Positions 9,649 to 46,337 of a stretch of 46,337 nucleotides of DNA are shown here, piece after piece; the stretch's first letter is position 1, and the number at the start of each line of letters is the position of its first letter. The notes beneath the pieces are model-generated. The model had not been told where the DNA came from, searched no databases, and saw only the letters and a list, made by a program, of their open reading frames with translations. Where the stretch lies: NCBI GenBank assembly GCA_964651115.1, contig CAZYXJ010000002.1, forward strand, positions 1 to 46,337, written 5' to 3'. A program made the position numbers and the translations under genes. The DNA is from an uncultured Candidatus Saccharibacteria bacterium. Its GTDB lineage: Bacteria; Patescibacteriota; Minisyncoccia; Phycocordibacterales; JACOZG01.

Positions 9649-10790
9649 TGGCCGAAGCCAAAAGAGTTTTAGTTTTTTCAACTGCTTATTTGCCTTTAGT
9701 GGGAGGCGCGGAATTGGCCGTCCATGAGCTAGCCAAACGTTTGCCAGAGTTTAAATTTGAAGTGGTGACGGCCCGTCTGCGTCCCGATCTACCGGCGCAA
9801 GAAACCGTCGGAGCGGTAACGGTCCATCGAGTCGGTCGAGGACGACGCTCAGACAAATTTCTGTTACCAATCATTGGCCGACCGCTGGTGCGGCAATTGA
9901 TGGCCAAACAACCCGCGGCCATTTTTTGGTCAATAATGGCTAGTCAGGCAAGTATTTTGGCCGCCTGGGCCAAGCGTCGATACCCCCAAATTCCCCTTGT
10001 TTTAACCCTACAGGAGGGCGATACCGAAGACCATTTAAAGCGCTACGTGGGCGGTAGCAGCTTTTTGTACCGCTGGCTGGTGCGTCCCTGGCATCTACGT
10101 GTTTTTGAGCGCGCCAACCACATTACGGCGATTAGCCGAGATCTGCTTAATCGGGCTCGAAGTCATCGTCGAACCGTGCCCTTAACCTTGATTCCTAATG
10201 GCGTTGACCTCGATCATTTCCGTTGGCGTTCGCTGGTGGAGCTGCCTAAAAAAGAGATCAAAACGATTATCACCACTTCGCGTTTGGTCGAAAAAAATGG
10301 GTTGTTTGATTTAATCGCGGCGCTCTCTTTTTTGCCACCTAATGTGGAGCTTAAAATTTTTGGTACTGGTCCGGATGAGTCGCGTTTGCGCGAGTGGGCC
10401 GAAGAACGGGGAGTGATGGGGCGGGTTCATTTTGCGGGGCAGGCTGATCATCACCGCATCGCGCTAGAGCTGGCTCGAGCTGATGTGTTTGTGCGGCCAT
10501 CGCTGTCGGAGGGGTTGGGGAATTCTTTTTTGGAAGCGATGGCCGTCGGCGTGCCGATAATCGGCACGCCCGTGGGCGGGATCCCGGACTTTTTGCGTCC
10601 CGGTGAGACGGGCTGGAGCTGCCGCGTTCATGATCCCGAGAGCGTCGCTAGGGCGGTTGCTTTTGTCTTAGCTCCAGAAAATCACGACCAAGTCCAAGCC
10701 GTAGCCCAAGCCGCCAGAAAGTTGGTCGAGGAGCGTTTTGACTGGACAGTCTTGGCGCGGTCACTTAGTCTGGTGTTTAAGAGTTTATGA
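9648..10790 (+). CDS. Glycosyltransferase, GT-B fold (GT4-like)
   Basis: EGLGNSFLEAMAVGVPIIGTPVGGIPDF (E-x7-E block). Its ATG overlaps the upstream TGA by 1 nt. Confidence 0.8.
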   Translation: MAEAKRVLVFSTAYLPLVGGAELAVHELAKRLPEFKFEVVTARLRPDLPAQETVGAVTVHRVGRGRRSDKFLLPIIGRPLVRQLMAKQPAAIFWSIMASQASILAAWAKRRYPQIPLVLTLQEGDTEDHLKRYVGGSSFLYRWLVRPWHLRVFERANHITAISRDLLNRARSHRRTVPLTLIPNGVDLDHFRWRSLVELPKKEIKTIITTSRLVEKNGLFDLIAALSFLPPNVELKIFGTGPDESRLREWAEERGVMGRVHFAGQADHHRIALELARADVFVRPSLSEGLGNSFLEAMAVGVPIIGTPVGGIPDFLRPGETGWSCRVHDPESVARAVAFVLAPENHDQVQAVAQAARKLVEERFDWTVLARSLSLVFKSL

Positions 10791-34000: not shown

Positions 34001-34220
34001 AAAACGTTTAGGTTTAGTGACCTATGGCACCCCCGATACAACTGGTTTTGGTTTAGCGGGTCCAGCAACGCGCGCTAAGCTTAATGAGCTCTATGGTGGA
34101 ACCACCGTGACTCCTACCGCGACGATTGACGCCGACCGCCGGGCCTTAATTTTATCTCTCCAAACTAAACTCTTAGAACTTTTGATAAAACTGCGAGACG
34201 CTCTTTTGTTGGGCGCTTAA
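31098..34220 (+). CDS. Large secreted protein: Ig-like/VCBS domain, heparinase II/III-like domain, PG-binding domain
   Basis: Signal anchor (alternative ATG at 31128). VTYTPATGYVGPDAFSFTVTDSRGTS is a cadherin/VCBS-like Ig block. LGHGHNDTGSL (nt 32755-32772 code GHGHND) is typical of the heparinase II/III family. The C-terminus GMKSDQVRVLQQML...GVYDMYTAKAVSIFQ is PG_binding_1-like. Confidence 0.6.
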   Translation: MTNFSFKISGMRARSKFWWPVIFLAVLATALIGSRWFELGSLVATPAAVNLANPSAPIRAFSVTRDIPINTAQEIELWSNATAPSYQIVSAPGHGGLSAVSGGRVTYTPATGYVGPDAFSFTVTDSRGTSAVATVWLTVVPNPRLNRTGSEMNTMIPILTPDHWDDPEPLRRDDDPVSKADYLDYIVDTYQRRQPGGNPDDFYQYDPLIYNSFFYRALGDASYLQQALTALGKLGAYYTTGPGASNPSIYFRRSDSAPTLEALSWILPNLASTTDEATATSARDQVMTLFDKLERFNPPTTPWQFGAGNQSIGPAAALKVIESLYPNYPDAAASSERQTIANQVWTDWTTEVDGFENATDYNGLFAAGVLHWLAGATTQERAALFGRSDFSDYAQRYLLQVSPLGIIPGYGDTFGFGGRPGHWVHAFESWAPELKSTDGELAGNLRWAAGQALGWIKRQESPMDFWGNLSDFTLRDVMFGYFKVDDGIAPRAPSEGSVLTYRHDVEFKSGAVRDATGYPAVVKSNTIPDKLVIRTGWDEDDFYALFELAPPLGHGHNDTGSLNALIEGGSLLLGDTPYVIKDHRFHNAFQLIPNGPETVSNQETTLRSMRTTNPSVRDGRLGTIANFSISSYLGRSVDLSRSVFVLKSPRGQAPYLWVRDRVVGREEDSFSGTIGPAWQTQTIYGARGNAWVNTTFQTIPVGYVDVLEYIAQWSNANRDLLMIFPGASSLSIENVSRDTTRLNSAVDQQNTSRLKVGAFKSTIVSTAPQSFSTLLVPHAPTPDATDLAEQFRSVIAEPNVTVVSRTSGNVKEYLGVNDLGATISFDGITTNATRLMLVRDGSTLNYQLEGVRSLVVDGKTVVAESGTVNREGSFSLGSTSSTKSTTTTSSTTVRPPEVAGVVTPEPTTPVVAPASPLPKLIGPFAYGMKSDQVRVLQQMLARDPSIVPPAPISGVYDMYTAKAVSIFQKRLGLVTYGTPDTTGFGLAGPATRAKLNELYGGTTVTPTATIDADRRALILSLQTKLLELLIKLRDALLLGA

Positions 34221-34258
34221 TTTAAGAGGTTTATCCCCACCGGATTGACCTAATTGAT

Positions 34259-34267
34259 TGCTATAAT
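34259..34267 (+). promoter_or_regulatory. Extended -10 promoter, short leader
   Basis: TGcTATAAT ends 12 nt before ATG 34280. Confidence 0.5.
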
Positions 34268-34279
34268 TGGGTTACTGGT

Positions 34280-37081
34280 ATGAAACACGAAAGCCCGTTG
34301 GTCGGTGGCTTTTTCTTGGTCGCGCTAGCGATGTTTAGTTTCTTGGTGGCGCCCGGATTTGTCGCGGCCGCGCCGGCGCTCACGATTAATTATCAAGGCA
34401 AGTTGGCAGACGATAACGGCGCTGTTGTGACCGACGGTACTTACAATATGCGCTTCAAGCTTTATACTGCCGCCTCGGGCGGTAGCCCGGTTTGGACGGA
34501 GACGTGGTGCCACACCCTGGCAAATGATTGTACGGGGCCTTACGTTGACGGCGAAGATATCATTTCTAATGATCAGCGCGTGGAGGTGGCTGATGGCCTT
34601 TTTTCGCTGATGTTGGGGACCCAAACTTCTTTAAGCGCGGTTAATTTTGATCAGCCACTCTACCTAAGCGTCGAGATTGGAGGGACTTCGGAAGTTGCGG
34701 CCGAAGGGTGGGATGGCGAAATGTCGCCGCGCAAGCCGCTCGGCTCCGTGCCCTCGGCGTTTATCGCCCAGAGGTTGAATGGTTTGTCGTCTTCTCAATT
34801 CTTGCGCTCTGATGCCACCAATGCTACTTCGACAACGAACACCGCTTTGGTGATCAACCAACAAGGATTGGGAGCGTTGATCGATTTACAAGACGGTGGC
34901 GTGTCGGCCTTTAAAATTTTGGATGGCGGTAACGTGGGGATCGGCACAAGTACTCCTTACGCCAAGTTGTCGGTGGTGGGCGAGACAGTCAGTACTTATT
35001 TTACGGCGACCTCGACGACCGCCACTTCAACTTTTGCGGGCGGAGTCTCGGCTGGTGCTCTGGAAGTGACGGGCGCGGCTACCTCAACTTTTGCTGGCGG
35101 AATTAATTTAACGACGGGGTGTTTCGCGATTTCTGGCAATTGTGTCGGCGGAGCCGGTGGCGGTTCGGGAACGGTTGGGAGCGGTACCACGGGACAGACT
35201 TCTTACTATGCTGGCAACGGAACTTCGGTTACCGCGACCTCGACCATTTTTATTGGTACCACCAGTTACGTTGGTATTGGCACGGCGTCGCCGTCTTACC
35301 AACTTTCGCTGGCCGCTGATTCAAAGATTGGTATCGGTAGTTTGGCGGCTTTATACATTCCTAATCAAACCAGTTTCGTCGGTAGCTTTTTTGTTGGCGA
35401 TGGCGGCGCGAGTTTGGTCAGCGCCGGAGCTAACCAGGGTGACCACAACACTGGCGTAGGTATTGGCGCGGCCAACGCCCTAACTAGTGGTTATCAGAAT
35501 ACGGCCATCGGTTACCAATCTTTGCATCTGGCGACGTCATCAATTCAAAACACTGCTTTGGGTTATTTAGCTCTCCGCAATACCACTAGCGGTAGCGGCA
35601 ACGTGGGCCTGGGTGTTGGCACTCTTTCCAACAACAGTACTGGTAGCAACAACATGGGTATTGGTAGCAACACTTTGGTTACGAACACTTCTGGTTCGGA
35701 AAACGTTGGTCTTGGTTATCAGGCGATGCGTCTTAATAGTACGGGAAGTTATAATGTGGGTATTGGTAGTGAGGCGTTGTATAACAGTACGGTGACTGGC
35801 AGTGTGGCGGTTGGTTATCGAGCCCTCTATAGTGCCTCAAGTGGTTCTTACAACACCGCCGTTGGTTATCAGGCGGGTAAGGGAGCTAGTGCCCACACGA
35901 CTACGGGTGGCGTCTTTATCGGTTACAACGCGGGAGCGGCGATTACAACGGGCGCGACCAACAACACCATTATTGGCGCGGGATCTGGTGAGACGGTCAG
36001 CTCAGGTAACGGCAATATTTTGATCGGTTACCAGACGGCCAATAATCTTACTAGTGGCTCGCGCAATATCGCCATTGGTTATGACATTGATATTACTAAT
36101 TCGACGGGTAGTAACCAGTTAAATATCGGCAACTTTATTTTTGGAACGGGGATTGACGGTACGGCCGGTACGGTCAGTAATGCAAAGATCGGAATCGGTA
36201 CTACGACCCCCGTCTCTACGCTCTCGGTTCAGGGCTCGCTCTGTGTTCGCGATGATGGTTCTTGTGGCACCACGGCGGGGACGATTTACGCCACAACGGC
36301 GGCCATTTCGGACATTGACGTGGCTGAAAATTTTCCGACCCAGGATGAAACCTTGTCGGCGGGAGAAATTGTCTCGGTTGACCCTGGTGCTGATGAGCAC
36401 ATTAAGCGAGCCGAGAGCGGCGAAGTGGTGGTGGGAGTTGTTTCGACTCAGCCGGGATTGTTGTTGGGGAAAGAATTTTCCTCCGGTCGGCCGGTAGCTT
36501 TGGCGGGTCGCGTGCCGGTAAAGGTTAACGACGAAGGTGGTCCGATTGAGCCCGGTGATTTGATTGCTCTGTCTACCGTCCCGGGAGTTGGTCGCAAGGC
36601 GACGACGAGTGATGAGGTGACGGTCGGCGTGGCGCTGGGATCATTAAATGATTCAACCGGCGAAGTGGTGGTCTTTGTGAGTTTGGAACGTCAGCGCTTG
36701 GCTGACCAGCAGTTATTTGCGGATCGACCGGAGGCGGAGGTTAAATTACGCGAATTAGTCTCTTCTCTGGGCGAGTGGAGCTTATCGGTGGAAGGCATTT
36801 TAACGGTTAAAGAAATCCGGGCTGATCGTCTTTGTTTGGGGGAGACTTGTATTGGTCAAAATGAGCTCGATCGAATTTTGAGACGTTTGAATATTGATGA
36901 ACCAGAATCAACGCCTGATCCGGAACCCGAACCTGAACCCGAACCTGAACCGGAACCTGATCCTGAACCAGAACCAGAAGTTACCCCCGAACCAGAGACC
37001 ACTTCTGATCCGGAGCCAGAACCAGAACCAGAGCCTGGAGTTGTCGTTGACGAAGAGCCAACTTCTGAGCCAGCAGTCTAA
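34280..37081 (+). CDS. Secreted fibre/adhesin-like protein with YadA-head-like repeats and a Pro-Glu tail
   Basis: Signal peptide. There are three (V/I)GIGT(S/T)xP...LS(V/L) motifs and ~14-15-aa repeats of the type NTAxGYxAL..NTTGSxNVGxG (about nt 35460-36110). The C-terminal tail is (PE)n. Confidence 0.6.
36914..37036 (+). repeat. Imperfect hexanucleotide (GAACCN)n tract encoding Pro-Glu/Pro-Asp repeats
   Basis: cctgatccggaacccgaacctgaacccgaacctgaaccggaacct... read directly. Confidence 0.9.
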
Positions 37082-37102
37082 AGGACATCGTTTCTATAGG
37101 AC

Positions 37103-37127
37103 AAACGGCCCGTTTGGGCCGTTTTTT
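37103..37127 (+). terminator. Rho-independent terminator
   Basis: aaacggccc-gttt-gggccgttt followed by ttt. Confidence 0.75.
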
Positions 37128-37130
37128 CGA

Positions 37131-37157
37131 CCCCCTTTTCCGGCCGGAAAAAGGGGG
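37131..37157. repeat. Near-perfect palindrome built on C5/G8 homopolymer runs
   Basis: cccccttttccgg / ccggaaaaaggggg, followed by more G residues and an A8 run. Confidence 0.85.
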
Positions 37158-37290
37158 GGGTGCCCAAAAAAAAGAAAAGATCCTTACCCTTCACAAAATC
37201 TTCATATCGTGTTAGTAGTTATAGCTAGGACATTAGCTCTTTGACTGGCTCTTTTTTGTTTGTGACCGGTTTTTTATTTTTTACTTGTCC

Positions 37291-38853
37291 ATGGCAAAAA
37301 AGAGCTATATTCGCTCAATTCTCAAGAAGTGTGTTGTCCTCGGTTTGGCCGGGGCCCTTTTTGTGTCTGCCGGACAAGTAGTTTGGGCGCAAGAAGTAAC
37401 GTCAAGTGAGGTGAGCGTGGCCGCGGTAAGTTCCGAGGCGCCAGCGTCTGCTGAGTCATCGACGAGCGAAACTCCTGCTTCGGCTGATGATGAGGACGAC
37501 CAATCGGCTCCAGAACCCACCCCAGAACCTACGTCAGAATCAGCTTCGGAAATTACTCAGGAAGTGAGTCCGGTTGCCGGGCCAGTAGTAACCGAAACGG
37601 TGACTGAGCCGGTAACGGAACCTGAGACTCAAGCAGTTGTTGAGTCGGTGGCTGAGGTGGCCGAGGTGATGGAAGTTGCCGAATCAGCCCCCGAGCTTCG
37701 TTCTGAGACTCAGCCAGAAGTGGTGGCAGTGGCCGCCGTGGTGGTAGAGACGGTGGTTAGTGCTGAGGTCTCGACGGCGACGGGTTCCGTTCCTCCCCCG
37801 ATTGCTGGTGGTGAGGTGGCGGTAAGTGCCGAAGTTTCGGCGACCACGCTTGGAGCTAGCGGGCCAGCGACGGAGATCGCGATTAGCCCCGAGGTGAGCG
37901 CGACCACTCTTTCAGCGGGTGGTCCGGGATCAGATCCCGAGATTGCGATTAGTGGCGAATATTCTTTCACTACTCTCGGCAATGGCGGACCAACCACGGA
38001 GATCGCGGTTAGCGGCGAGTATTCCTTCACCACCCTTGACGACGACGATGGACCTGGGGGTGGTGGCGGTGGCGGCCGACGCCGTCGCAGTTCTCCACGC
38101 GGGGAGGTCTTGGGTGAGGTTCTGCCCTGTGGCGAATGGTTGTCTAAGTACATTCGTTATGGTTGGAACAATGACCCCTTCGAAGTCCTTAAGCTTCAAT
38201 ATTTCTTGCGTACCTTTGAGGGTTTCGAGGTTGGCTTGACTGGTGTTTATGACGAACCCACGCTCCAGGCGGTGATGATTTTCCAGCGCCGCTACAGCGA
38301 TGATGTTTTGAATCCTTGGGGTTTGTCGGTAGATCAGCCTACGGGTTTCGTGTTTATCACGACCAAGTTGGCTATCAACAATATCTACTGTAACCGTAGC
38401 ACCGACACCGATCTCGACTTGCGCCACATCTACGATCACTATGGACCGGTTGGCCTGATTGTGGATAAGGAGGGCGCCGGTAACTACGTGGCCGGACCCG
38501 TCACTGTGGCGACGAGTACTTGGGAGTATGCTCCTGAGCCGACTCGCGGTTGGTTGGGTGCCGCCGCTGTTGGGTTGCTCGATTTTATAAAGGACAAAGC
38601 CGCCTTACTATTTATTTTAATTTTGGCGGCGGCAATTGCCGTGCTCTGGTATCTTTTAATGCATTCTTATAAACAACGAGAAGATTTGGCGGAGGAGTAC
38701 TATTCGACCATCCCACCGCCGGTAGTGGTGCCTAAGGAAGAGGTGGTTGAAGTGCGGGTGCGCGATGAAGAAATTTCGGCAGCTGACCTGAACGAGGCCG
38801 CGGTGGCGGATCGAGACCAGTCTGCCGGGAACGACCCCGTTGACAAAAAGTAA
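37291..38853 (+). CDS. Acidic repeat protein with a PG-binding-like domain and a C-terminal TM anchor
   Basis: Signal or anchor sequence, an S/E/T/P/V-rich acidic region, 4 tandem ~20-aa repeats, G7-R4, a domain LKLQYFLRTFEGF..GVYDEPTLQAVMIFQRRY, a C-terminal TM segment and a charged tail. Confidence 0.6.
   Translation: MAKKSYIRSILKKCVVLGLAGALFVSAGQVVWAQEVTSSEVSVAAVSSEAPASAESSTSETPASADDEDDQSAPEPTPEPTSESASEITQEVSPVAGPVVTETVTEPVTEPETQAVVESVAEVAEVMEVAESAPELRSETQPEVVAVAAVVVETVVSAEVSTATGSVPPPIAGGEVAVSAEVSATTLGASGPATEIAISPEVSATTLSAGGPGSDPEIAISGEYSFTTLGNGGPTTEIAVSGEYSFTTLDDDDGPGGGGGGGRRRRSSPRGEVLGEVLPCGEWLSKYIRYGWNNDPFEVLKLQYFLRTFEGFEVGLTGVYDEPTLQAVMIFQRRYSDDVLNPWGLSVDQPTGFVFITTKLAINNIYCNRSTDTDLDLRHIYDHYGPVGLIVDKEGAGNYVAGPVTVATSTWEYAPEPTRGWLGAAAVGLLDFIKDKAALLFILILAAAIAVLWYLLMHSYKQREDLAEEYYSTIPPPVVVPKEEVVEVRVRDEEISAADLNEAAVADRDQSAGNDPVDKK
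37831..38040 (+). repeat. Four tandem 60-66-nt repeats inside the CDS
   Basis: Units start at 37831, 37891, 37957 and 38017 and encode E(V/Y)S(A/F)TTL..GP..EIA(I/V)S(P/G). Confidence 0.85.
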
Positions 38854-38942
38854 AATTCGGGGTAGTTGTTAGATCTGAGGCACGCGTTGTGCTTCAGTGT
38901 TCATTGAAATTTGCGGGAATTCACAGAAAGCGGAGGTGTTCC

Positions 38943-40223
38943 ATGACGACGAGGATTGGTTTCGCAGGATTGGTGGGGTTGTTGGCTGGCTTGGCTGGCT
39001 GCCAACCGGCACCGGTCGCCACAACGGTCCAAGTAAAAGTCGGCGAGCGCCTGCTCGCCACGGGGGAAGAGGTTCGCGTGCGCCAGGGAGACTCTCTCGT
39101 TCTCGAGGCGGTGACGACTGGGGCGGTGGCTGGCTACGACTGGGAGGTGCCGACCGACGCGTCGATGCGGCATAACAGCCCGGATCTGCCGTGGCTGTTT
39201 CGGGATGCGGGCCGTCACCTCATCAAGGTGACAGCCTTCAGTCCGTTCGGTGGAGCTTTCAATGGCTTCACCAGCATCTGGGTCGTCGTCGACCCGGTGC
39301 CTCAGCCGGTTGTGGTTGTGGGTCCTGGCGGTGAGACTCCACCGGTGCCCATCGTCCTCGACCTGGGGCGAATCATCGTCACGGGAGGTGGACTCTGGAT
39401 CCCGGCGGAAAATCTCTTCGAGGTTGAGCCGGGCCAGGAGTTCGTGCTCGACCTCTCGGGCGCCTGCTCGGGCGGCACGGGTCCTTATGGCTTTGTGGTG
39501 ACGGGACCAGGTGGGGTGATTTGGGGCACTTCGCCTCGGATTGTCCGAATCTTGCCGGCAGGAAGTGGTGACGTGTACTTGACGATCCGCGTCACCGACG
39601 GCCGCGGTCAGGTTCGCGAGTTTGTGATCCTGATCCGCGTCCGCGGCGGCGGTAGCAACCCGCCGCCGTGCACCTTGCCGGTGCTGGCCCTGTCGGGCCC
39701 GTCCGCGGTCAAAGCTGGCGAGAGCATCTCGCTGGCTTACCAGGCGAGTGCGGGCACTCTCGCCCTGTCGTCGTCGCCGGCCATCCCGGGACTGCCGTCG
39801 GTGCCGAGCAGTAGTCCAATCGTCATCCCGACGACGGGATTACTGGGGACGTACCGCTTAACTCTCCGCTTGACCAATAGTTGTGGAAGCGTGGAGAAGT
39901 CCCTTGACGTGGCGGTACAAAACGAGCCGCCCACCATGACTTACCCGACAGTGGTGATCAGCGCGCCCGCGCAAGATACCACCGTCAAGGTCGGTCAGGC
40001 GGTCACCTTCACGGCGCAGGTGATTGGAGGTACGCCGCCGTACAGCTATAACTGGCTGTTTAGTGATGGCGATACACCTCCCACCACCAGTAGTTCCTCG
40101 GTGGTCAAGGTGTTTAATCGCGCCACGGCCGGGCAGTTTCCCTTCGACCAGTATCTCGAGGTTCGAGATAGTCAGGGGAGGAAAAGCCTGGTGGCGACGG
40201 TTCGGGTCCGAGTCGTCCCGTAA
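38943..40223 (+). CDS. PKD/Ig-like repeat lipoprotein with high-GC codon usage (probable foreign origin)
   Basis: GGAGG 7 nt upstream. Lipobox LLAGLAGC. PKD signature GGTPPYSYNWLFSDGD. ATC, CTC, GTC and CCG codons dominate, unlike the neighbouring genes. Confidence 0.7.
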   Translation: MTTRIGFAGLVGLLAGLAGCQPAPVATTVQVKVGERLLATGEEVRVRQGDSLVLEAVTTGAVAGYDWEVPTDASMRHNSPDLPWLFRDAGRHLIKVTAFSPFGGAFNGFTSIWVVVDPVPQPVVVVGPGGETPPVPIVLDLGRIIVTGGGLWIPAENLFEVEPGQEFVLDLSGACSGGTGPYGFVVTGPGGVIWGTSPRIVRILPAGSGDVYLTIRVTDGRGQVREFVILIRVRGGGSNPPPCTLPVLALSGPSAVKAGESISLAYQASAGTLALSSSPAIPGLPSVPSSSPIVIPTTGLLGTYRLTLRLTNSCGSVEKSLDVAVQNEPPTMTYPTVVISAPAQDTTVKVGQAVTFTAQVIGGTPPYSYNWLFSDGDTPPTTSSSSVVKVFNRATAGQFPFDQYLEVRDSQGRKSLVATVRVRVVP

Positions 40224-40255
40224 CCGTAAACCATTTTGCTCTTTTGTTTTTTTCT

Positions 40256-40292
40256 GCCCCCACTTCGGCTTTAGCCAAGTGGGGGCTTTTTT
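40256..40292 (+). terminator. Rho-independent terminator
   Basis: gcccccactt / aagtgggggc followed by tttttt. Confidence 0.85.
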
Positions 40293-40383
40293 CATGCAAT
40301 CTTCAGGTTAGTAAACTAGGGTGAGGGCTTAAGCGGTTTGAGCTTGACCTTGCTTTTTTATCAGAATGTGTTAAACATAGGGT

Positions 40384-40995
40384 ATGAAAAATTACAAACA
40401 AGTAGCAATTTGGGCTTTGGTTTTAGCTTTAGTTTTGGGTGCCACGGTGGCCGTATCGGCTCAGACGGCACTGCAGGCTAACATTTTGGGGCCAGCTAAC
40501 GGCTCTTCTTACGCCGTTGGTCAGCTCGTTTCTTTTGGCGCTTCGGCCGAGGGTGGCAGCGCGCCTTACGTTTATAACTGGGATTTTGGTGATGGCACGA
40601 GTCAGTCGGGTCAATCTTTTGACCGGGCTTACACTCAAGCCGGCAGCCGAACGGTTAAGCTGACGGTGACGGACTTTACTGGTGCCACGGCTGAGGCGAC
40701 TCGCAATCTGACGATTACTGGCGGGACGAGCAATCCGCTCACGATCTCTAATGTTCGCGTAACGGACGTGACCAAGAACAGTGCCGTGGTTCGTTGGACG
40801 ACTAATAAGCCAGCGACGAGTCGGGTCATCTACGATACGGTTTCCCACGCTACTTTGGGAAGCGCGCCTGATTATGGTTATGCCAATACTACTGGGACGA
40901 CTGATGTCGACACCAAGGTGACGGAGCACGCGGTAACGGTTAGCGGTTTGTCTAGCCAGACGACCTACTACTTCCGAGTGATTTCTGAGGCCTAA
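40384..40995 (+). CDS. Secreted PKD-domain plus FN3-like domain protein
   Basis: Signal peptide. GGSAPYVYNWDFGDGT...VKLTVTD is a PKD block. ISNVRVTDVTKNSAVVRWTT...TTYYFRV is FN3-like. Confidence 0.65.
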   Translation: MKNYKQVAIWALVLALVLGATVAVSAQTALQANILGPANGSSYAVGQLVSFGASAEGGSAPYVYNWDFGDGTSQSGQSFDRAYTQAGSRTVKLTVTDFTGATAEATRNLTITGGTSNPLTISNVRVTDVTKNSAVVRWTTNKPATSRVIYDTVSHATLGSAPDYGYANTTGTTDVDTKVTEHAVTVSGLSSQTTYYFRVISEA

Positions 40996-41022
40996 GCCCT
41001 CTTGCTTCGGGTTTGTGGTTTG

Positions 41023-41060
41023 CAAAACTCCGCCTAGAACTTAGGCGGAGTTTTGTTTAT
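41023..41060 (+). terminator. Terminator-like 13-bp perfect hairpin
   Basis: caaaactccgcct-agaactt-aggcggagttttg followed by tttat. Confidence 0.6.
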
Positions 41061-41069
41061 AGTGGGGCG

Positions 41070-42032
41070 ATGACCCGCCGCCAGTGGCAAAAATTATTCC
41101 CCCAAGCCCAGCTTAACTTCCCGATTAGCCGGGTTACTACCTTTGGCGTTGGTGGCGTGGTGGCGGCTTATTTACCAGTCGAAACGCCTGAGGCCCTGAT
41201 GTCGGCGGTGATTCGCGCCCAGCAAGCGAAAGTTAAATATTTAGTTTTGGCGGGAGGCAGTAATGTGGTGTTTGCTGATCGCCGCTACGCTGGTTTGGTC
41301 ATTCATTATTATTCACCCCAGGCGGCTTGTTTAGTCGGCAATGACTCGTTAACTTGTAACGCTGGGGCCAAGTTGTCGACCTTGGTGGCCAGTGCCGTCG
41401 ACGCCGGCTTGGCGGGCTTGGAATCATTGTCGGGGATCCCGGGGACGGTAGGCGGAGCTATCGTTGGTAACGCTGGGGCCTATGGCCAAGCGATTTCTGA
41501 TCACCTGGCTTGGGTGGAAGTTTTTGATTCAACGAAACAGAAAACCAAAATTTTGTCGGTCCAGGAATGCCGGTTTGCTTATCGCGACAGCATCTTTAAA
41601 CATCGTCCGTGGTTGGTGTTGCGGGCTAATTTTAAATTAACCCCTGGCGCGGCGGCTGATTTGCGGCGACGTTCTCAGGAAATTATTGCGGCCCGTGAGA
41701 AAAAATATCCTCCCGGCTTGCGCTGTCCTGGCAGCTTCTTTAAAAACGTTAGAGTGGCCGAAGTGTCTAAAAAATCTCTTCGTTTAATCGACACCAGCAA
41801 AATTATCGAGGGCAAAATTCCGGCTGGTTACTTGTTGGAGGCGGTGGGCGCCAAGGGGCGGCAGGTGGGTGGGGTGCTGGTTTCGGATGTCCACGGTAAT
41901 CTGATCGTTAATGTGGGCCGGGCTCGCTGGGGGGAGGTGCGACGCCTGGCCGAGCAACTTAGGCGGGCCGTATTTAAGCGTTTCGGCATTGTTTTAGAAG
42001 AAGAGGTCCGTTATCTGGGAGGAGTTCGTTAA
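41070..42032 (+). CDS. murB: UDP-N-acetylenolpyruvoylglucosamine reductase
   Basis: TFGVGGVVAAY, LVLAGGSNVVFAD and GIPGTVGGAIVGNAGAYG. Start trimmed to ATG 41070, after the hairpin and 6 nt after TATAGT. Confidence 0.85.
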   Translation: MTRRQWQKLFPQAQLNFPISRVTTFGVGGVVAAYLPVETPEALMSAVIRAQQAKVKYLVLAGGSNVVFADRRYAGLVIHYYSPQAACLVGNDSLTCNAGAKLSTLVASAVDAGLAGLESLSGIPGTVGGAIVGNAGAYGQAISDHLAWVEVFDSTKQKTKILSVQECRFAYRDSIFKHRPWLVLRANFKLTPGAAADLRRRSQEIIAAREKKYPPGLRCPGSFFKNVRVAEVSKKSLRLIDTSKIIEGKIPAGYLLEAVGAKGRQVGGVLVSDVHGNLIVNVGRARWGEVRRLAEQLRRAVFKRFGIVLEEEVRYLGGVR

Positions 42033-42034
42033 TA

Positions 42035-42043
42035 TGTTATAAT
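42035..42043 (+). promoter_or_regulatory. Extended -10 promoter, leaderless geometry
   Basis: TGtTATAAT ends 7 nt before ATG 42051. Confidence 0.5.
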
Positions 42044-42050
42044 CGGCATT

Positions 42051-42506
42051 ATGACTGGATCCAGCGTGGTGGGGATTATGAGTGTGCTTTTAATCGTTGG
42101 CTTGGGGGCGACTATTTTGCTCCGCCAGCCCGTCGAACCTATGACTAATATTCCTGATGCTTTGTCGTCGTCCCTAACTCCCCCGATTGGTGGTTACGAG
42201 CTTGTGCCGCCAGCGGGTTATGAGTTGTTTGGTCAGATTGATTTTGGCGCACCGACGACCTGGATTAAAGCGGTGGGCCCGGCTAGTCCGGTGGCCAGCG
42301 AGGGCCCCGGCGCGCCCCACTCATTTATTACCGTTGTTCCTTTGCCGGTAGTCGGCGGCGAGGAGGTGCTCAAAGAACATTTGACGATTGATCCGGCGAC
42401 CTATGGTCAGGTGGTGGAAAGTGGTGAGCGCCGCTATTTGATTTATGGTCGAGCAGCCGATCGGGCGGAGATTGAGTCGGCCATCGCTTCGTTTAAAATT
42501 AATTAA
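42051..42506 (+). CDS. Membrane-anchored hypothetical protein
   Basis: One N-terminal TM segment and no recognisable family. Confidence 0.5.
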   Translation: MTGSSVVGIMSVLLIVGLGATILLRQPVEPMTNIPDALSSSLTPPIGGYELVPPAGYELFGQIDFGAPTTWIKAVGPASPVASEGPGAPHSFITVVPLPVVGGEEVLKEHLTIDPATYGQVVESGERRYLIYGRAADRAEIESAIASFKIN

Positions 42507-42516
42507 GTTTAAACTT

Positions 42517-42744
42517 ATGGACAATAAAACTACCATTAGTACGCTAGTGATTCTTTTAATTTTGGGTGCTTTTTATGTGATTTTGATGGCGGCGCGAAAT
42601 CTAACGCCTGAGCGACCAGTGCCGCCAGTTGGTGAGGGCGAGCCAATTTTTTGCACGATGGACGCCAAGATCTGTCCGGATGGTTCCGCGGTTGGTCGCG
42701 TGCCGCCAACTTGCGAATTTGCCGCTTGCCCCACGGGGATGTAA
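42517..42744 (+). CDS. Small membrane-anchored Cys-rich protein
   Basis: 75 aa with one TM segment, then CTMDAKICPDGSAVGRVPPTCEFAACP (4 Cys). Start trimmed to ATG 42517. Confidence 0.5.
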   Translation: MDNKTTISTLVILLILGAFYVILMAARNLTPERPVPPVGEGEPIFCTMDAKICPDGSAVGRVPPTCEFAACPTGM

Positions 42745-42754
42745 GTTTATTAAC

Positions 42755-44104
42755 ATGGATTTGATTCCGATCATTGGGCTAGAGATTCACGCCGAACTCG
42801 CGACGGCCACTAAAATGTGGTGTGGCTGTAAAAATGATCCGGACGAAAAACGGCCGAATTGGAACGTCTGTCCAGTCTGTTTGGCTCATCCGGGAACGTT
42901 GCCGGTGCCTAATCGCGAAGCGCTTAGGCACGTGTTGCGCGTGGGTTTGGCCGTGGGCGGTCGACTAGCTGACTTTACGGAGTTTGATCGGAAAAATTAT
43001 TTTTATCCCGATATTCCGAAGGGGTATCAGATTAGTCAGTACGAGTATCCATTAGTCGTTGGTGGGTCGTTGGCCGGCGTAGCTCTAACTCGCATTCACT
43101 TGGAAGAAGATACGGCTCGATCTCAGCACGCGGAAGATGCCGACCATAGCTTGGTTGATTTCAACCGCGCCGGCGTGCCGCTCATGGAGTTGGTGACGGA
43201 GCCAGTGATCGAAAATGCCAAACAGGCCGGCGACTTTGCTCGTGAGCTCCAGTTGTTGTTGCGCTATTTGGGTGTTGCCGAAGCGAATATGGAAAAGGGG
43301 GAGTTGCGAGTTGAGGCGAATATTTCGCTCGGGACGCGAGAAAAATTCGGGACGAAAGTGGAAGTAAAAAATCTAAACTCTTTCCGGGCGGTGGAAAAGG
43401 CCATCAATCACGAACTGGAGCGTCAGCGAGCGTTATTGGCTAGCGGCGGCCAGGTGGTGCAAGAGACGCGTGGTTGGGATGACGTGACCGGGGTCACTTT
43501 TTCTCAACGGCAAAAAGAGTCTTCTCATGATTATCGCTATTTCCCGGATCCCGATATTCCTAAATTTAAATTAAGTGAACTGACCGAATTCCAAAATTTA
43601 GAGCAAACTTTGCCGGAGTTGCCGTGGCAAAAGCGCGAGCGCTACCGGGCTCTGGGTTTTTTGCAGTCTCAAGATGTTGAACAACTCGTTGGCGACTTTG
43701 AGCTGGCTCTCTTTTTTGACCAGACTGCCGCCGAGCTTAGAGATCCGTCCCTAATTAAGGCGGCGGCGAACATTATTTTAAATGATATTGCGGGTAAGCG
43801 AAAAAATGATCCAGCGTGGTTGCCGACGGCTGAGACATTTGTGAAAGTGATTAAGCTTAATTTGCCCATGCCGCAAACGCGGAGTTCAATTCTAACCGGC
43901 ACAATCGTCGAAGTGCTGTCTGATGACGCGCTCGGTGGAATCGTGGAGAAAGTTGTCGCGGCCAATCCCAACGTGGTCGCTGACTATCGGGGCGGCAAAC
44001 AATCGGCCTTACAATTTTTGGTTGGGCAGGGGATGAAGGAGAGCCAGGGCAGTGCTAATCCGGCGGTGTTGGCAAAATTATTTAAAGCGGCTTTAGATTC
44101 TTAA
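42755..44104 (+). CDS. gatB: Asp/Glu-tRNA amidotransferase subunit B
   Basis: IGLEIHAELATATKMWCGC, HLEEDTA, NRAGVPLMELVTEP and EANISL. Start trimmed to ATG 42755 (MDLIPIIGLE). Confidence 0.9.
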   Translation: MDLIPIIGLEIHAELATATKMWCGCKNDPDEKRPNWNVCPVCLAHPGTLPVPNREALRHVLRVGLAVGGRLADFTEFDRKNYFYPDIPKGYQISQYEYPLVVGGSLAGVALTRIHLEEDTARSQHAEDADHSLVDFNRAGVPLMELVTEPVIENAKQAGDFARELQLLLRYLGVAEANMEKGELRVEANISLGTREKFGTKVEVKNLNSFRAVEKAINHELERQRALLASGGQVVQETRGWDDVTGVTFSQRQKESSHDYRYFPDPDIPKFKLSELTEFQNLEQTLPELPWQKRERYRALGFLQSQDVEQLVGDFELALFFDQTAAELRDPSLIKAAANIILNDIAGKRKNDPAWLPTAETFVKVIKLNLPMPQTRSSILTGTIVEVLSDDALGGIVEKVVAANPNVVADYRGGKQSALQFLVGQGMKESQGSANPAVLAKLFKAALDS

Positions 44105-44106
44105 TT

Positions 44107-44526
44107 ATGAGTTGGATCTTACTTTCTTTACTCTCGGCTTTTTTTGCCGCTTTGGTGGCAATCTTGGGTAAGTTGGGAATTAAGGAGATTGATTCGACCC
44201 TGGCCACGGGAGTGCGCGCGGCGGTGATGGCGGTAGCAATGCTGGTGGCGGTTACTGCTCTGGGTAAATGGAAATTCGTTTCCACCATTGACGGCCGCGC
44301 GCTCGGCTTTATTGTGGCTTCGGGTTTGGCCGGAGCGCTGTCGTGGTTATTTTATTTTCTCGCTTTAAAAAGTGGTAAGGCCTCTTCGGTGGCGGCGGTT
44401 GATCGTTTGAGCGTCGTCTTTGTACTGATCCTCGCCGCTCTCTTTTTGGGCGAGCTGGCGACGTGGAAGGCGTGGGGCGGCGCGGCGCTTATCGTCCTGG
44501 GCGCGATCTTAATGGTGCTGGGGTAG
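44107..44526 (+). CDS. Half-size EamA/DMT-family transporter (4-5 TM)
   Basis: 139 aa; SALFYFLALKSG-like and LGAILMVL blocks typical of EamA domains. Confidence 0.6.
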   Translation: MSWILLSLLSAFFAALVAILGKLGIKEIDSTLATGVRAAVMAVAMLVAVTALGKWKFVSTIDGRALGFIVASGLAGALSWLFYFLALKSGKASSVAAVDRLSVVFVLILAALFLGELATWKAWGGAALIVLGAILMVLG

Positions 44527-44533
44527 GGGATCT

Positions 44534-44692
44534 ATGAAGAAAGTCATCAGCACTGCTAAAAAATCCATCCAATCAATCGAGAAAATATCGCACTTTCGTT
44601 GTGCTCACTGCAACAAATGGTGGTCTATCGGTGATGCCCCGCGTCGTAAAAAGTGGTGGTGCCCTTGGTGTGGCCAGGGGGTTATGTTGTAG
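44534..44692 (+). CDS. 52-aa zinc-ribbon mini-protein (absent from the ORF track)
   Basis: MKKVISTAKKSIQSIEKISHFRCAHCNKWWSIGDAPRRKKWWCPWCGQGVML has two CxxC pairs 16 residues apart. GGGGA lies 5 nt upstream, and the start is 7 nt after the EamA stop. Confidence 0.5.
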   Translation: MKKVISTAKKSIQSIEKISHFRCAHCNKWWSIGDAPRRKKWWCPWCGQGVML

Positions 44693-44700
44693 GGTCTAGG

Positions 44701-44870
44701 TAAAAAAATAGCCCCGCTTGGAGGCGTTCCGGTCGATCCGGTCTGCCAAACGGGGGTTGCGAACGTTGCTCGAATGCTTAGCGGAATGCTAATCCTTGGC
44801 GAACTGACGGCCAGAAGGAGTTACATCCGAGCTTCGGTTGAACTCGCAACAAGTGCCTTTCGGGCACTTC
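44701..44870 (+). ncRNA. Candidate structured RNA, unit A (unclassified)
   Basis: P1 hairpin ccccgcttgg (44712-44721) / ccaaacgggg (44746-44755). Long-range helix GTTGCGA (44756-44762) / TCGCAAC (44844-44850) encloses three hairpins. Terminal hairpin aagtgcc-tttcg-ggcactt. No ORF. The ends are approximate. Confidence 0.45.
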
Positions 44871-44903
44871 CATCGCCAGTTTAATCTAAATTTTGTAATC
44901 TTT

Positions 44904-44937
44904 AAAGATGGCGGCCTCATAGAGTTTAAGATTTAGG
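44904..44937 (+). promoter_or_regulatory. 34-nt conserved box, copy 1
   Basis: AAAGATGGCGGCCTCATAGAGTTTAAGATTTAGG is 28/34 identical to copy 2. It holds a -10-like TAAGAT located 17 nt after AAAGAT. Confidence 0.6.
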
Positions 44938-44939
44938 AA

Positions 44940-44968
44940 TTGACAATTTGGTTTATGTAGTGTTTACT
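44940..44968 (+). promoter_or_regulatory. Sigma70-type promoter for ORF 45023
   Basis: TTGACA (44940-44945), a 17-nt spacer, TTTACT (44963-44968), preceded by TG. Confidence 0.6.
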
Positions 44969-45022
44969 ACCGGTAGAAAATGTTTTCGAATTCCAGATAA
45001 CCAAAATTGAAAGGACTAAGGC

Positions 45023-45214
45023 ATGACTCTACTTGAAGAATTTTACAATGCCCGTATCAGTGAACCGGATCCAGCAAAGAAGATGTTATTCACGGTCTTT
45101 AGTGATCTGATCGCGCGAGTTGGTTTTGGTGATTGGTGGCGTTCGTGCGACGAAAAGGTTCAAAACGAAATACTTCAAACCAACCTGGACAAGATTCGAC
45201 AGCAGATGTCGTAG
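45023..45214 (+). CDS. 63-aa hypothetical protein
   Basis: It has its own promoter and a gaaagga 10 nt upstream. The product looks soluble and helical. No family recognised. Confidence 0.45.
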   Translation: MTLLEEFYNARISEPDPAKKMLFTVFSDLIARVGFGDWWRSCDEKVQNEILQTNLDKIRQQMS

Positions 45215-45307
45215 TCAACGCCCACCATCTCAAACACGGAAAATTCACGTCGCGAGAGGAGGGTTTCTGTTAAATGAAGATGACTGCCATTGAAAAAAGG
45301 AAATATT

Positions 45308-45499
45308 ATGAAAAAGTTCTGGCTTCTGATTGCTCTTTGGAACACTGTGGTCATGTGTGTGAATCTGACTGTTCTGCCGCACTTCGGTCCGGCAGCGACG
45401 GCTTACATCACACCCCAATCGCAGTTGCTTCCGATCATGATCCCGCTGGCTCTCTACGCGCTTTCCTTCGGACAAGTTCGAAGGTTGGTGTGGAGGTGA
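45308..45499 (+). CDS. 63-aa two-TM membrane protein (hypothetical)
   Basis: MKKFWLLIALWNTVVMCVNL...LLPIMIPLALYALSF..RRLVWR. AAGGA lies 8 nt upstream and a terminator lies downstream. It competes with the overlapping frame 45274-45510. Confidence 0.4.
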   Translation: MKKFWLLIALWNTVVMCVNLTVLPHFGPAATAYITPQSQLLPIMIPLALYALSFGQVRRLVWR

Positions 45500-45523
45500 G
45501 ATCGGTTTGATCAGGTAATTACG

Positions 45524-45564
45524 AGGGCGGCCTGGATAAACTCTAGGCCGCCCTTTCTTCTTTT
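45524..45564 (+). terminator. Rho-independent terminator
   Basis: agggcggcc / ggccgccct with a 13-nt loop, followed by ttcttctttt. Confidence 0.75.
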
Positions 45565-45565
45565 A

Positions 45566-45599
45566 GAAGACGGCGGTGTCACAGAGTTTAAAATTTAGG
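45566..45599 (+). promoter_or_regulatory. 34-nt conserved box, copy 2
   Basis: GAAGACGGCGGTGTCACAGAGTTTAAAATTTAGG. GAAGAC, a 17-nt spacer, then TAAAAT (45589-45594). It runs straight into TAAAAATAGAGCC, the start of unit B. Confidence 0.6.
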
Positions 45600-45600
45600 T

Positions 45601-45745
45601 AAAAATAGAGCCGCGATGCACTGTTTCCCTTGGGAGACGGCGCATCCGGCTGATGAGTTGCGAGGCTTTCGTCAGCACAGGCGTTGCCTGATCTTTGACT
45701 AAGTCATGGGGTTGGGTATCCAAATCCAACCCTTTCGCAACTAAG
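45601..45745 (+). ncRNA. Candidate structured RNA, unit B (paralog of unit A)
   Basis: P1 agccgcgatgc (45609-45619) / gcatccggct (45642-45651). Helix GTTGCGA (45657-45663) / TCGCAAC (45735-45741) encloses three hairpins (caggc-gtt-gcctg, tgac-taa-gtca, gggttgg-N10-ccaaccc). The ends are approximate. Confidence 0.45.
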
Positions 45746-45761
45746 CAAATTGTAGCATTTG

Positions 45762-45795
45762 GAAGACGGAAATACTATCGAGTTTAAAATCAAAA
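45762..45795 (+). promoter_or_regulatory. 34-nt conserved box, copy 3
   Basis: GAAGACGGAAATACTATCGAGTTTAAAATCAAAA is 22/34 identical to copy 2, with the same GAAGAC-N17-TAAAAT geometry. Confidence 0.5.
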
Positions 45796-45940
45796 AAGCC
45801 CGTCGAGTACGTCTACTCGCGGACTTGTGTTTCCGAAAGACCTTTGGTGGCCCGGACGGGTGGGGTGGACATAATGCGATGCAGGGAGCACGTGCTCTAT
45901 CCTGGAGGCCCACCCCACCCGTCGCCGTCACCACTTTTTT
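45796..45940 (+). ncRNA. Candidate small RNA, unit C, ending in a long GC-rich terminator hairpin
   Basis: 5' hairpin at 45800-45822. A 14-bp perfect helix gacgggtggggtgg (45855-45868) / ccaccccacccgtc (45910-45923), followed by T6 (45935-45940). The ORFs predicted here cross these structures. Confidence 0.45.
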
Positions 45941-45983
45941 GACTTTACCAAAATCCTTCCTGGCCGTCAATTTTGCTACTAAA

Positions 45984-46011
45984 TTGACAAGCCGGGATAA
46001 TCGTGTATTCT
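45984..46011 (+). promoter_or_regulatory. Sigma70-type promoter for the RRM gene
   Basis: TTGACA (45984-45989), a 16-nt spacer, TATTCT (46006-46011). The -35 lies inside the inverted repeat gtcaattt-N7-aaattgac (45966-45988). Confidence 0.55.
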
Positions 46012-46108
46012 AATAATACGTAGTAAGTGTTTCTCGAGGTTCCTGCATTTGTTCAAAGTGTCGGGAGACGTGGAGAAAGGTCGCCTTACACGAAAAACAA
46101 AAGTTCAA

Positions 46109-46337
46109 ATGGCTAAAAAATTGTACGTCGGCGGTATTCCGTATTCAAGTACGGATGAGACGCTGAAGGCCGCTTTTGCTCAGGCTGGCTCCGTTGAGTC
46201 TGCGACCATCATCATGGATCGCATGACGGGTCGCTCGAAAGGCTTCGGCTTTGTCGAGATGACCTCGGACGAGGATGCGCAAAAAGCGATCGCGATGTGG
46301 AATGGTCAGGACTTTGAGGGTCGCAAGCTTACGGTCA
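46109..46337 (+). CDS. RRM-type RNA-binding protein (partial, runs off the right edge)
   Basis: MAKKLYVGGIPYS (RNP-2) and KGFGFVEM (RNP-1). Confidence 0.85.
   Translation, partial: MAKKLYVGGIPYSSTDETLKAAFAQAGSVESATIIMDRMTGRSKGFGFVEMTSDEDAQKAIAMWNGQDFEGRKLTV

Follow-up and report, generated by a model that had tools for sequence, protein, structure and literature searches.

Two strongly folded small-RNA genes among ychF-end repeats in the genome of an uncultivated Patescibacteria bacterium

Background

What do two short, structured segments encode that lie among small open reading frames (ORFs) on a contig from an uncultivated bacterium, and how did they come to be there? The question is raised by contig CAZYXJ010000002.1 (assembly GCA_964651115.1), whose analyzed stretch of 46 kb (46,337 nt, hereafter the window) belongs to an uncultivated Patescibacteria genome of the Paceibacteria/Parcubacteria type; the closest matches of its GatB protein come from Adlerbacteria-like and "Saccharibacteria"-labelled metagenome-assembled genomes, at 55-65% identity. 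The runs SRR14271375 and SRR14271365 contain an identical contig. The two segments, units A and B, sit in a block of 1,265 nt (44526..45790) that holds, in order, ORF52, unit A, a repeat copy (rep1), ORF63, ORF63b, a second copy (rep2), unit B, and a third copy (rep3). A first-pass annotation, made from the letters alone, had described them as paralogous, cloverleaf-like RNAs associated with a neighboring RRM protein. To our knowledge, non-coding RNAs have hardly been explored in the Patescibacteria (the candidate phyla radiation). Here, we describe both units as strongly folded, unannotated small-RNA genes whose folds are real, and we ask from which strand they are read, whether they are related to each other, and what carried them into this place.

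Two folded units in one window

The motif pair GTTGCGA-N(70-100)-TCGCAAC occurs exactly twice in the window, against 0.02 occurrences expected from shuffled sequence, and the two spans, 44756-44850 (95 nt, unit A) and 45657-45741 (85 nt, unit B), are those that had been described. The A-rich leader TAGGTAAAAA has only two exact copies in the window, 49 and 51 nt upstream of the two GTTGCGA boxes, and each is followed by a hairpin, P1, which spans 44712-44755 (44 nt) in A and 45609-45651 (43 nt) in B. The two hairpins are unrelated in sequence, and the frame of A-rich leader, ~44-nt hairpin, and closing helix is present as first reported. A trailing (A/T)AG after TCGCAAC, also reported, is found in A (AAG) and not in B, which has TAA.

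Thermodynamic folding of the single sequences recovered P1 and the 7-bp closing helix (P2) in both units, with fold z-scores of -2.6 for A and -6.8 to -7.6 for B, while the four-way junction with three internal hairpins, which had suggested a cloverleaf, was not recovered. The covariation-backed fold of A is nested, with the 7-bp P2 followed by an 8-9-bp P3 that encloses two hairpins, and the minimum-free-energy (MFE) fold of B has a three-way junction, from which a long arm and a single hairpin extend. Known families do not account for either unit: a search of the window with Rfam 15 (4,227 families) at the gathering threshold returned only 16S rRNA and two tRNAs, and the unit region at E<=10 gave only weak chance matches.

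Unit A, a rare RNA family with covariation

Homologs of unit A were reached through ORF63, the protein encoded between the units, whose few homologs sit downstream of ychF in other Paceibacteria. One contig with an ORF63 homolog carries an A-like unit (L083:2431-2597, with a near copy in L084), and further contigs fetched around closely related YchF proteins added L107/L108 and L122, so that A-type homologs outside the window are known from three lineages (L083/L084, L107/L108, and L122). An A-type model (R2, 50 pairs), trained only on the copies of L083/L084/L107 with the window sequence excluded, matched unit A over its full length (positions 1-167) with 72.9 bits and an E value of 7e-19.

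Covariation was then evaluated on five distinct A-type sequences from four lineages in an alignment fitted to the model. Standard pairs fill 96.4% of the pair cells, and changes on both sides were found at 14 pairs, which are spread through every helix; when the structure was slid by 1-3 columns, only 0-3 such pairs remained, none of 500 shuffles reached the observed value, and RNAalifold independently predicted the same helices. P2 reads GUUGCRA/UYGCAAC, its variable pair being G-C in the window and A-U elsewhere (GUUGCAA/UUGCAAC), a 5′ hairpin (P0) has 3 pairs changed on both sides, and the P1 pairs are kept in the five sequences, with the outer stem CCCCG…CGGGG in all five. Structural conclusions were drawn solely from these model-based alignments of A-type copies; a MAFFT alignment of A with B puts P1 and P2 in the wrong places. 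That three other lineages have homologs, and that every helix shows compensatory changes, bears out the earlier view of structured RNA genes rather than decayed coding sequence. Small minus-strand ORFs (43-44 aa) that run across the units were considered and rejected, since homologs differ there by compensatory stem changes and non-triplet indels.

On these alignments, unit A is best described as a member of a rare, previously uncatalogued RNA family absent from Rfam. Its gene, as delimited by model R2 and covariation, covers 44699..44871 on the minus strand (~173 nt) and reads, from 5′ to 3′ on that strand, P0, P2, P3 with its two hairpins, P1, and a U-tract. P0 (AAGUGCC-CGAAA-GGCACUU, 44851..44869) and P3 (44768-44776 with 44824-44832, enclosing hairpins at 44778-44792 and 44794-44818) come from covariation, P2 (GTTGCGA at 44756-44762 with TCGCAAC at 44844-44850) from the motif pair, and the core as a whole (44756..44850) from the minus-strand MFE fold together with covariation.

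The family is rare. In eighty loci fetched through GatB synteny, neither nhmmer nor regular expressions nor the models turned up a copy of A or B; a weak match in L060 was rejected, being located within a NUDIX-like ORF and having many non-canonical pairs. A scan of viral contigs for the leader-P2 pattern gave 0 matches, and BLAST of the whole block found no match in phage or plasmid records. Three pattern matches on metagenome contigs were attributed to chance: none is recognized by the model, and one falls within a toxin-antitoxin ORF.

Promoters, terminators, and the strand that is read

Seen from the minus strand, the A-rich leader and P1 become a GC-rich hairpin followed by CUAUUUUUUU, which has the form of an intrinsic terminator. 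In unit A, this terminator occupies 44699..44755, with CUAUUUUUUUACC at 44699-44711 following P1, and a terminator scan listed a minus-strand site at 44725..44711 with the tail TATTTTTTTA. Minus-strand 3′ ends read …GGGG-CUA-UUUUUUU in A and in three of the four homolog sequences (the U-tract is U6 in L122) and …CGGCU-CUA-UUUUU in B; P1 folds into a GC-rich stem-loop in A, B, and all A-type homologs, and the U-tract is present as well. The scan allows an offset of 0-2 nt between stem and U-tract, and because the offset here is 3-4 nt, B and the homologs go unlisted. Taken together, P1 and the U-tract are probably a Rho-independent terminator of the minus strand, as predicted from these signals. 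What had been taken for the 5′ start of the RNA, the A-rich leader with P1, would then be its other end, and the compensatory changes reported between the P1 helices of A and B become uninformative, because P1 is a terminator stem when read this way and any two terminator stems would show such changes.

Promoter signals lie at the opposite end. All three A-type copies outside the window carry TAGACA-17-TATATT with an upstream TG on the minus strand (10/12 matches), and this promoter ends in all three exactly 7 nt upstream of model position 1. L083 and L107 have the same hexamers and differ at 4 of the 17 spacer positions, and similarity among the A-type copies stops just past the -35. Unit A has at the aligned place a weak promoter-like site of its own, TTTAAA-17-TAAACT (44878..44906, minus strand), whose -10 also ends 7 nt before the RNA start; with 8/12 matches, it falls below the scan threshold of 9/12 and is hence unlisted. 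In unit B, an extended -10, TGCTACAAT (45749..45757, minus strand), ends 7 nt upstream of the extended P2 helix and would place the RNA start at ~45742. Unit B as drawn from these signals and from folds of both strands is ~145 nt long (45598..45744, minus strand with uncertainty), with P1 as given above, P2 at 45657-45663 with 45735-45741, and the three-way junction inside. The scans found no conserved plus-strand promoter upstream of the A-type copies, where the sequences left of the leader differ, and no plus-strand U-tract follows any 3′ hairpin of the units.

The pairs themselves point the same way for the A-type. Placed on the consensus structure, G·U cells number 10 if the minus strand is read and 4 if the plus strand is. 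At the inner end of P3, all five sequences have a minus-strand U·G pair that would turn into a C·A mismatch if the other strand were read. The MFE of unit A is -58.5 kcal/mol on the minus vs -55.4 kcal/mol on the plus strand, and the minus-strand fold recovers the covarying helices. We conclude that unit A is likely read from the minus strand, and that the same strand is the slightly likelier one for unit B.

Repeats of the ychF end and the cassettes between them

A direct repeat of ~35 nt, present three times in the region, is the 3′ end of ychF (…DGDVMEFKI*), and despite these three copies tblastn found no ychF gene in the window. The plus-strand copies are rep1 (44898..44944, the last ~35 nt of ychF, …KDGGLIEFKI*; identified as a direct repeat, by an nhmmer repeat profile, and by tblastn to YchF 357-368), rep2 (45560..45603, …EDGGVTEFKI*; direct repeat and nhmmer), which abuts the tail of unit B, and rep3 (45755..45800), a degenerate copy identified by repeat searches and by comparison with a close relative. 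In related genomes, with arrays in L083, L104, L110, L117, and L122, the first copy is the true end of the ychF ORF, and later copies separate short units, each of them self-contained. The stretch from ychF to leuS varies among genomes even at 86-99% YchF identity, and the same units (ORF63, a 132-aa gene, and the A-type RNA) recur in differing orders. Protein units have a TTGACA promoter right after the repeat, like the one that stands after rep1 for ORF63, and a terminator at their end; RNA units are oppositely oriented, and their terminator abuts the repeat. This layout of minus-strand promoter, closed multi-stem RNA, and terminator at a ychF-end repeat is also seen in L110 and L117.

A-type copies have different neighbors in the window, L083, L107, and L122, and none of the copies outside the window has an RRM gene nearby. 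ORF63, a family of 63-65 aa without a Pfam or PHROG match, lies <1 kb from the A-type RNA in three of the four lineages (the window, L083, and L122), in differing order and orientation.

Several ORF-less cassettes resemble minus-strand small-RNA (sRNA) genes (L110:8762-8907 and 10105-10300; L117:2349-2545 and 2580-2790; L086:440-700 and 2060-2200); they carry TTGACA-type promoters, a closed domain of several stems, and a terminator that adjoins a ychF-end repeat, and they match neither Rfam nor the A or B models. A tRNA-like gene at L104:7664-7742 (minus strand; Rfam tRNA 40 bits, an 11-nt anticodon loop, a stem of ~10 bp) is not called by ARAGORN and has its own terminator, which abuts the ychF stop codon. 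Rfam searches of the homolog loci returned only tRNA and, elsewhere, a LOOT RNA (RF03000, 72 bits, above gathering) at L096:5052-5168 (minus strand), with unknown ORFs around it, upstream of a large serine recombinase and ychF.

Such repeats also occur beside an integrase gene and on phage-like contigs. A tyrosine integrase (PF00589) lies just left of a ychF-end repeat in L086 (754-1671) and L087 (978-1895), with a lysine/glycine-rich ORF of 48 aa beside it; in the sister contigs L089 and L090, the same right-hand genes come directly after ychF. An isolated ychF end of 30 nt is carried by two phage-like contigs, L124 (IMG/VR UViG_3300027923_001678, positions 10581-10617) and L125, which encode Phage_rep_O, AAA_24, and two DNA methylases; the copy lies ~100 nt from the contig end, and a stop codon comes before it. 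Such an isolated end is as expected for an attachment site used to integrate into ychF. On the simplest reading of these sequences, then, the repeat would serve as attachment site for elements whose target of integration is the 3′ end of ychF and, by analogy with other islands, the arrays would have been built by successive integration and decay there.

How the block lies in its chromosome is seen against the closest relative found (L103, GCA_964444555.1), which has an EamA protein 93% identical and DNA flanks 88-96% identical. By blastn, L103 1-10419 matches window 34131-44525 at 87.6% and L103 10432-10977 matches window 45791-46337 at 95.8%, so that window 44526-45790 (1,265 nt) replaces 12 nt of L103 and rep3 forms the block's right junction with native sequence (…GAGTTTAAAATC|AAAAAAGCCCG). 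In L103, units A and B are absent, and EamA, a further structured element (unit C), and the RRM gene are directly adjacent; the native upstream neighbor of the RRM gene is thus unit C. With the block missing in L103 and no RRM gene near the A-type homologs, the association with the RRM protein is not upheld. At least the part from unit A through rep3 bears the signature of the ychF hot spot.

The most probable account and its rivals

On balance, we favor the account in which A and B are each a self-contained small-RNA gene, read most probably from the minus strand, carried as cassette cargo, and acting in trans. Each gene would run from its own promoter to a Rho-independent terminator and yield an RNA of ~145-175 nt, as estimated from consensus signals; the promoter is conserved in the outside A-type copies and would be represented in the window by the weak site of A and the extended -10 of B. 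The functional body would be the 85-95-nt multi-helix domain closed by the GUUGCRA/UYGCAAC helix. In the array, copies of the ychF 3′ end, each of ~35 nt, would bound the short cassettes; they are presumably attachment-site remnants of integrative elements or phages whose target in related Paceibacteria is the ychF end. Here the array lies away from ychF, between EamA/ORF52 and the native structured element upstream of the RRM gene.

We infer action in trans because there is no conserved neighbor and no overlap or complementarity with the neighbors. A riboswitch or cis-acting leader was rejected, as the neighbors differ across lineages and no minus-strand gene comes after the terminators; so was a type I antitoxin, since the terminator of ORF63b ends at 45555 and unit B at ~45600, without overlap. 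Antisense pairing with the start regions of ORF52, ORF63, and ORF63b was also rejected (duplex energies are unremarkable, with ranks 4 to 33 of 38), and a 12-nt match of unit B to the start region of ORF63 is within chance expectation. A and B have the same 7-bp helix here, and it covaries elsewhere; it might for that reason be an element recognized by a protein or a processing enzyme, a suggestion that we make as speculation.

A number of points weigh against this account. First, the strand is called from consensus signals and a modest G·U asymmetry in an alignment that was itself fitted to the minus strand. Second, the signals are imperfect: the promoter-like site of unit A matches at only 8/12 positions, unit B has no good -35 element, the U-tracts begin 2-4 nt past the stems, and P1 exceeds the usual length of a terminator stem. 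Third, the A-type is known from five sequences in four lineages, three of which are close together. Fourth, part of the L103 difference could be a deletion in L103, because the leftmost gene of the block, ORF52, has chromosomal homologs close to gatB in other genomes. Finally, unit B folds better on the other strand, with -69.9 kcal/mol and 6 G·U pairs on the plus vs -57.0 kcal/mol and 1 G·U pair on the minus strand.

This last point is an argument for plus-strand RNAs, in which an A-rich single-stranded leader would be followed by P1 and the junction domain, and transcription would start at the TTTAAAAT box in the ychF-end repeat or come from co-transcription with the cassette genes. To the 13 kcal/mol by which B is more stable on that strand can be added two U·G pairs in the inner P1 of L083, one wobble in the L107 P0 that fits the plus strand, and a TAAAAT box in rep2 that lies 7-8 nt upstream of the B leader. 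We nevertheless regard plus-strand RNAs as unlikely: in addition to the missing plus-strand promoter and terminator, they leave unexplained the conserved minus-strand -35 and -10 hexamers with their variable spacer and fixed 7-nt distance, as well as the C·A mismatch that every sequence would then have at P3's inner end.

No homolog of B was found in any locus examined, by nhmmer or by a model built from B (R3). Cross-searches fail in both directions, R2 having no match on unit B at E<=10 and R3 none on unit A, and a model of P1 and P2 only (R1) reaches 9.9 bits on B, with an E value of 0.36. What A and B have in common are boundary elements, namely the terminator tail and the identical 7-bp helix, which are too specific in sequence for chance. 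Because R2 and R3 fail to cross-match, A and B are not demonstrably paralogs over their bodies, contrary to the first-pass annotation, and by these models unit B is an orphan structured RNA. One could then suppose that only A is a gene of a conserved family and that B is unrelated or decaying, perhaps non-functional, its 7-bp helix and tail having been acquired by recombination or gene conversion with A; within this genome, A and B indeed share one P2 sequence, where A-type copies elsewhere have GUUGCAA/UUGCAAC. We consider this quite unlikely, since B folds more strongly than A, which is unexpected for decaying sequence, and shows every part of the cassette layout (repeat, tail, hairpin, closed domain, and -10 box); moreover, close relatives are very thinly sampled.

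Much less probable is that the folds act as DNA, i.e., as single-stranded recombination or replication structures (attC-like or an origin) that mobilize the cassettes. They are located in arrays of short cassettes near recombinase genes, their structure is conserved beyond sequence as in integron attC sites, and compensatory changes fit RNA and single-stranded DNA alike. Most cassettes, however, have no such element, whereas the ychF-end repeat is common to all boundaries, and promoter and terminator frame the element exactly. Identity with attC also fails in detail: attC needs RYYYAAC at the 5′ and GTTRRRY at the 3′ side, while GTTGCGA…TCGCAAC, which reads the same on both strands, has the GTT and AAC boxes in inverse order with GCGA misfitting RRRY, and the fold has several branches, where attC forms one bulged hairpin.

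A reading as degenerate RNAs that derive from or resemble tRNAs, in which the 7-bp helix would be the acceptor stem, is largely refuted and can be set aside as scarcely credible: a 7-bp closing helix and the L104 tRNA-like gene (same cassette type and orientation, own terminator) would fit, but ARAGORN finds only the tRNAs at 1347-1509 in the window and no tRNA or tmRNA here, the Rfam tRNA model has no match in 44500-46120 at E<=10, a T-loop or D-arm is lacking, as the annotation had correctly stated, and A is nested, not a cloverleaf. A hammerhead was excluded as well: CUGAUGA does occur in B (45650-45656, plus strand, just before the 7-bp helix), but the helix is followed by UAAG where GAAA would be needed, CUGAUGA is absent from unit A, and no Rfam hammerhead matches at E<=10, which marks the CTGATGA as a coincidence.

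Relation to known systems

In form, the units are like ordinary bacterial sRNA genes, an analogy that extends to their stand-alone size of ~145-175 nt, the promoter 7 nt before the RNA, the GC-rich terminal hairpin with U-tract, and the absence of a conserved neighbor gene. Unlike known trans-acting sRNAs, they have no Rfam match and no detectable complementarity to neighboring start regions, and their body is a closed multi-helix domain rather than open seed regions.

Integration at the 3′ end of a gene has a parallel in staphylococcal cassette chromosome (SCC) elements, which integrate at the 3′ end of rlmH. Islands formed by successive site-specific integration at tRNA genes have been described in Prochlorococcus as tycheposons (bioRxiv 10.1101/2020.12.28.424599). 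The resemblance of the arrays described here to such serial-integration islands lies in the copies of a target-gene 3′ end that punctuate a variable array and in the integrases and the phage-like contig that carry the repeat. The differences are that units here are ~200-600 nt with their own promoter and terminator and mostly without a recombinase, that the target is the coding end of ychF and not a tRNA gene, that RNA genes are frequent cargo, and that the array in the window is not beside ychF. The ychF neighborhood is also used by a temperate element in pneumococcus, a prophage inserted in the dnaN-ychF interval, where its 14-bp target site belongs to the promoter region of ychF (PMC6375853). 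Because it integrates upstream of ychF and not in the 3′ end, and no cassette arrays or RNA genes are described for it, we do not count it as a precedent.

Integron arrays are comparable in organization, with short shuffled cassettes, structure conserved more than sequence, and 7-bp inverted GTT/AAC boxes. They differ from the arrays here in box order, in the branched fold, in that the element here is found in only some cassettes, in the cassettes' own promoters, and in the direct repeat of a gene end, and no IntI-type integrase was identified. Phage-borne tRNA and tRNA-like genes, finally, share the 7-bp terminal helix and, for the L104 gene, the cassette position and orientation, whereas the units have no D, anticodon, or T arm.

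These comparisons leave room for a bolder idea that we hold as possible, if doubtful: that Paceibacteria possess an integron-like system of a new type, in which copies of the ychF end serve as recombination sites and the cassettes are tiny and self-expressing. If so, cassettes made of one promoter, one product, and one terminator would be gained, lost, shuffled, and sometimes moved elsewhere; a sizeable share of them would be structured small RNAs (A-type, B, tRNA-like, and others); and the GUUGCRA/UYGCAAC helix would be recognized by a host- or element-encoded factor. Site-specific cassette exchange would moreover predict junctions within the ychF-end repeat near …GAGTTTAA|GAT….

The favored account itself has narrower implications. 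It adds one rare covariation-backed RNA family and one orphan RNA to the Patescibacteria, and suggests that, in the hot spot downstream of ychF, small RNA genes travel between attachment-site remnants besides small ORFs. Should the RNAs serve mobile elements, e.g., in defense, counter-defense, or host manipulation, they would offer a handle on gene flow in uncultured organisms. We regard the discovery as solid but modest, given that the family is rare and that neither the cloverleaf-like paralog pair nor the RRM partner was upheld.

Neighboring genes and further features

The remaining genes of the block are all on the plus strand. ORF52 (44534..44692) encodes a zinc-ribbon mini-protein (CxxC…CxxC) with weak zinc-ribbon Pfam matches, and 6 nt separate its stop codon from the unit A tail; the homologs near gatB mentioned above were found in the Paceibacteria contigs L019, L021, L033, L060, and L080. 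ORF63 (45023..45214) is the small protein that recurs as a cassette of the ychF-leuS hot spot in the homolog loci. ORF63b (45308..45499) encodes a hydrophobic protein of 63 aa and is followed by a terminator at 45523-45555, as taken from the ORF list and the terminator scan.

At the other end of the window, positions 1-1509 hold the 3′ part of a 16S rRNA gene (1-505), ~840 nt, tRNA-Ile(GAT), and tRNA-Leu(CAG). No 23S rRNA was found in the remaining 45 kb of the window, and the rRNA genes therefore appear to be unlinked.

Unit C, the native element between EamA and the RRM gene (window 45791-45948, corresponding to L103:10432-10585), consists of a long GC-rich hairpin and a second hairpin, with A-runs and T-runs on both sides that make it terminator-like either way. 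It has no Rfam match, shows two compensatory pairs between the window and L103, and has a promoter-like TTGACG-17-TAAAGT with TG on the minus strand at 45970..45942. Unit C may be a third minus-strand sRNA gene, or else a bidirectional terminator or leader of the RRM gene.

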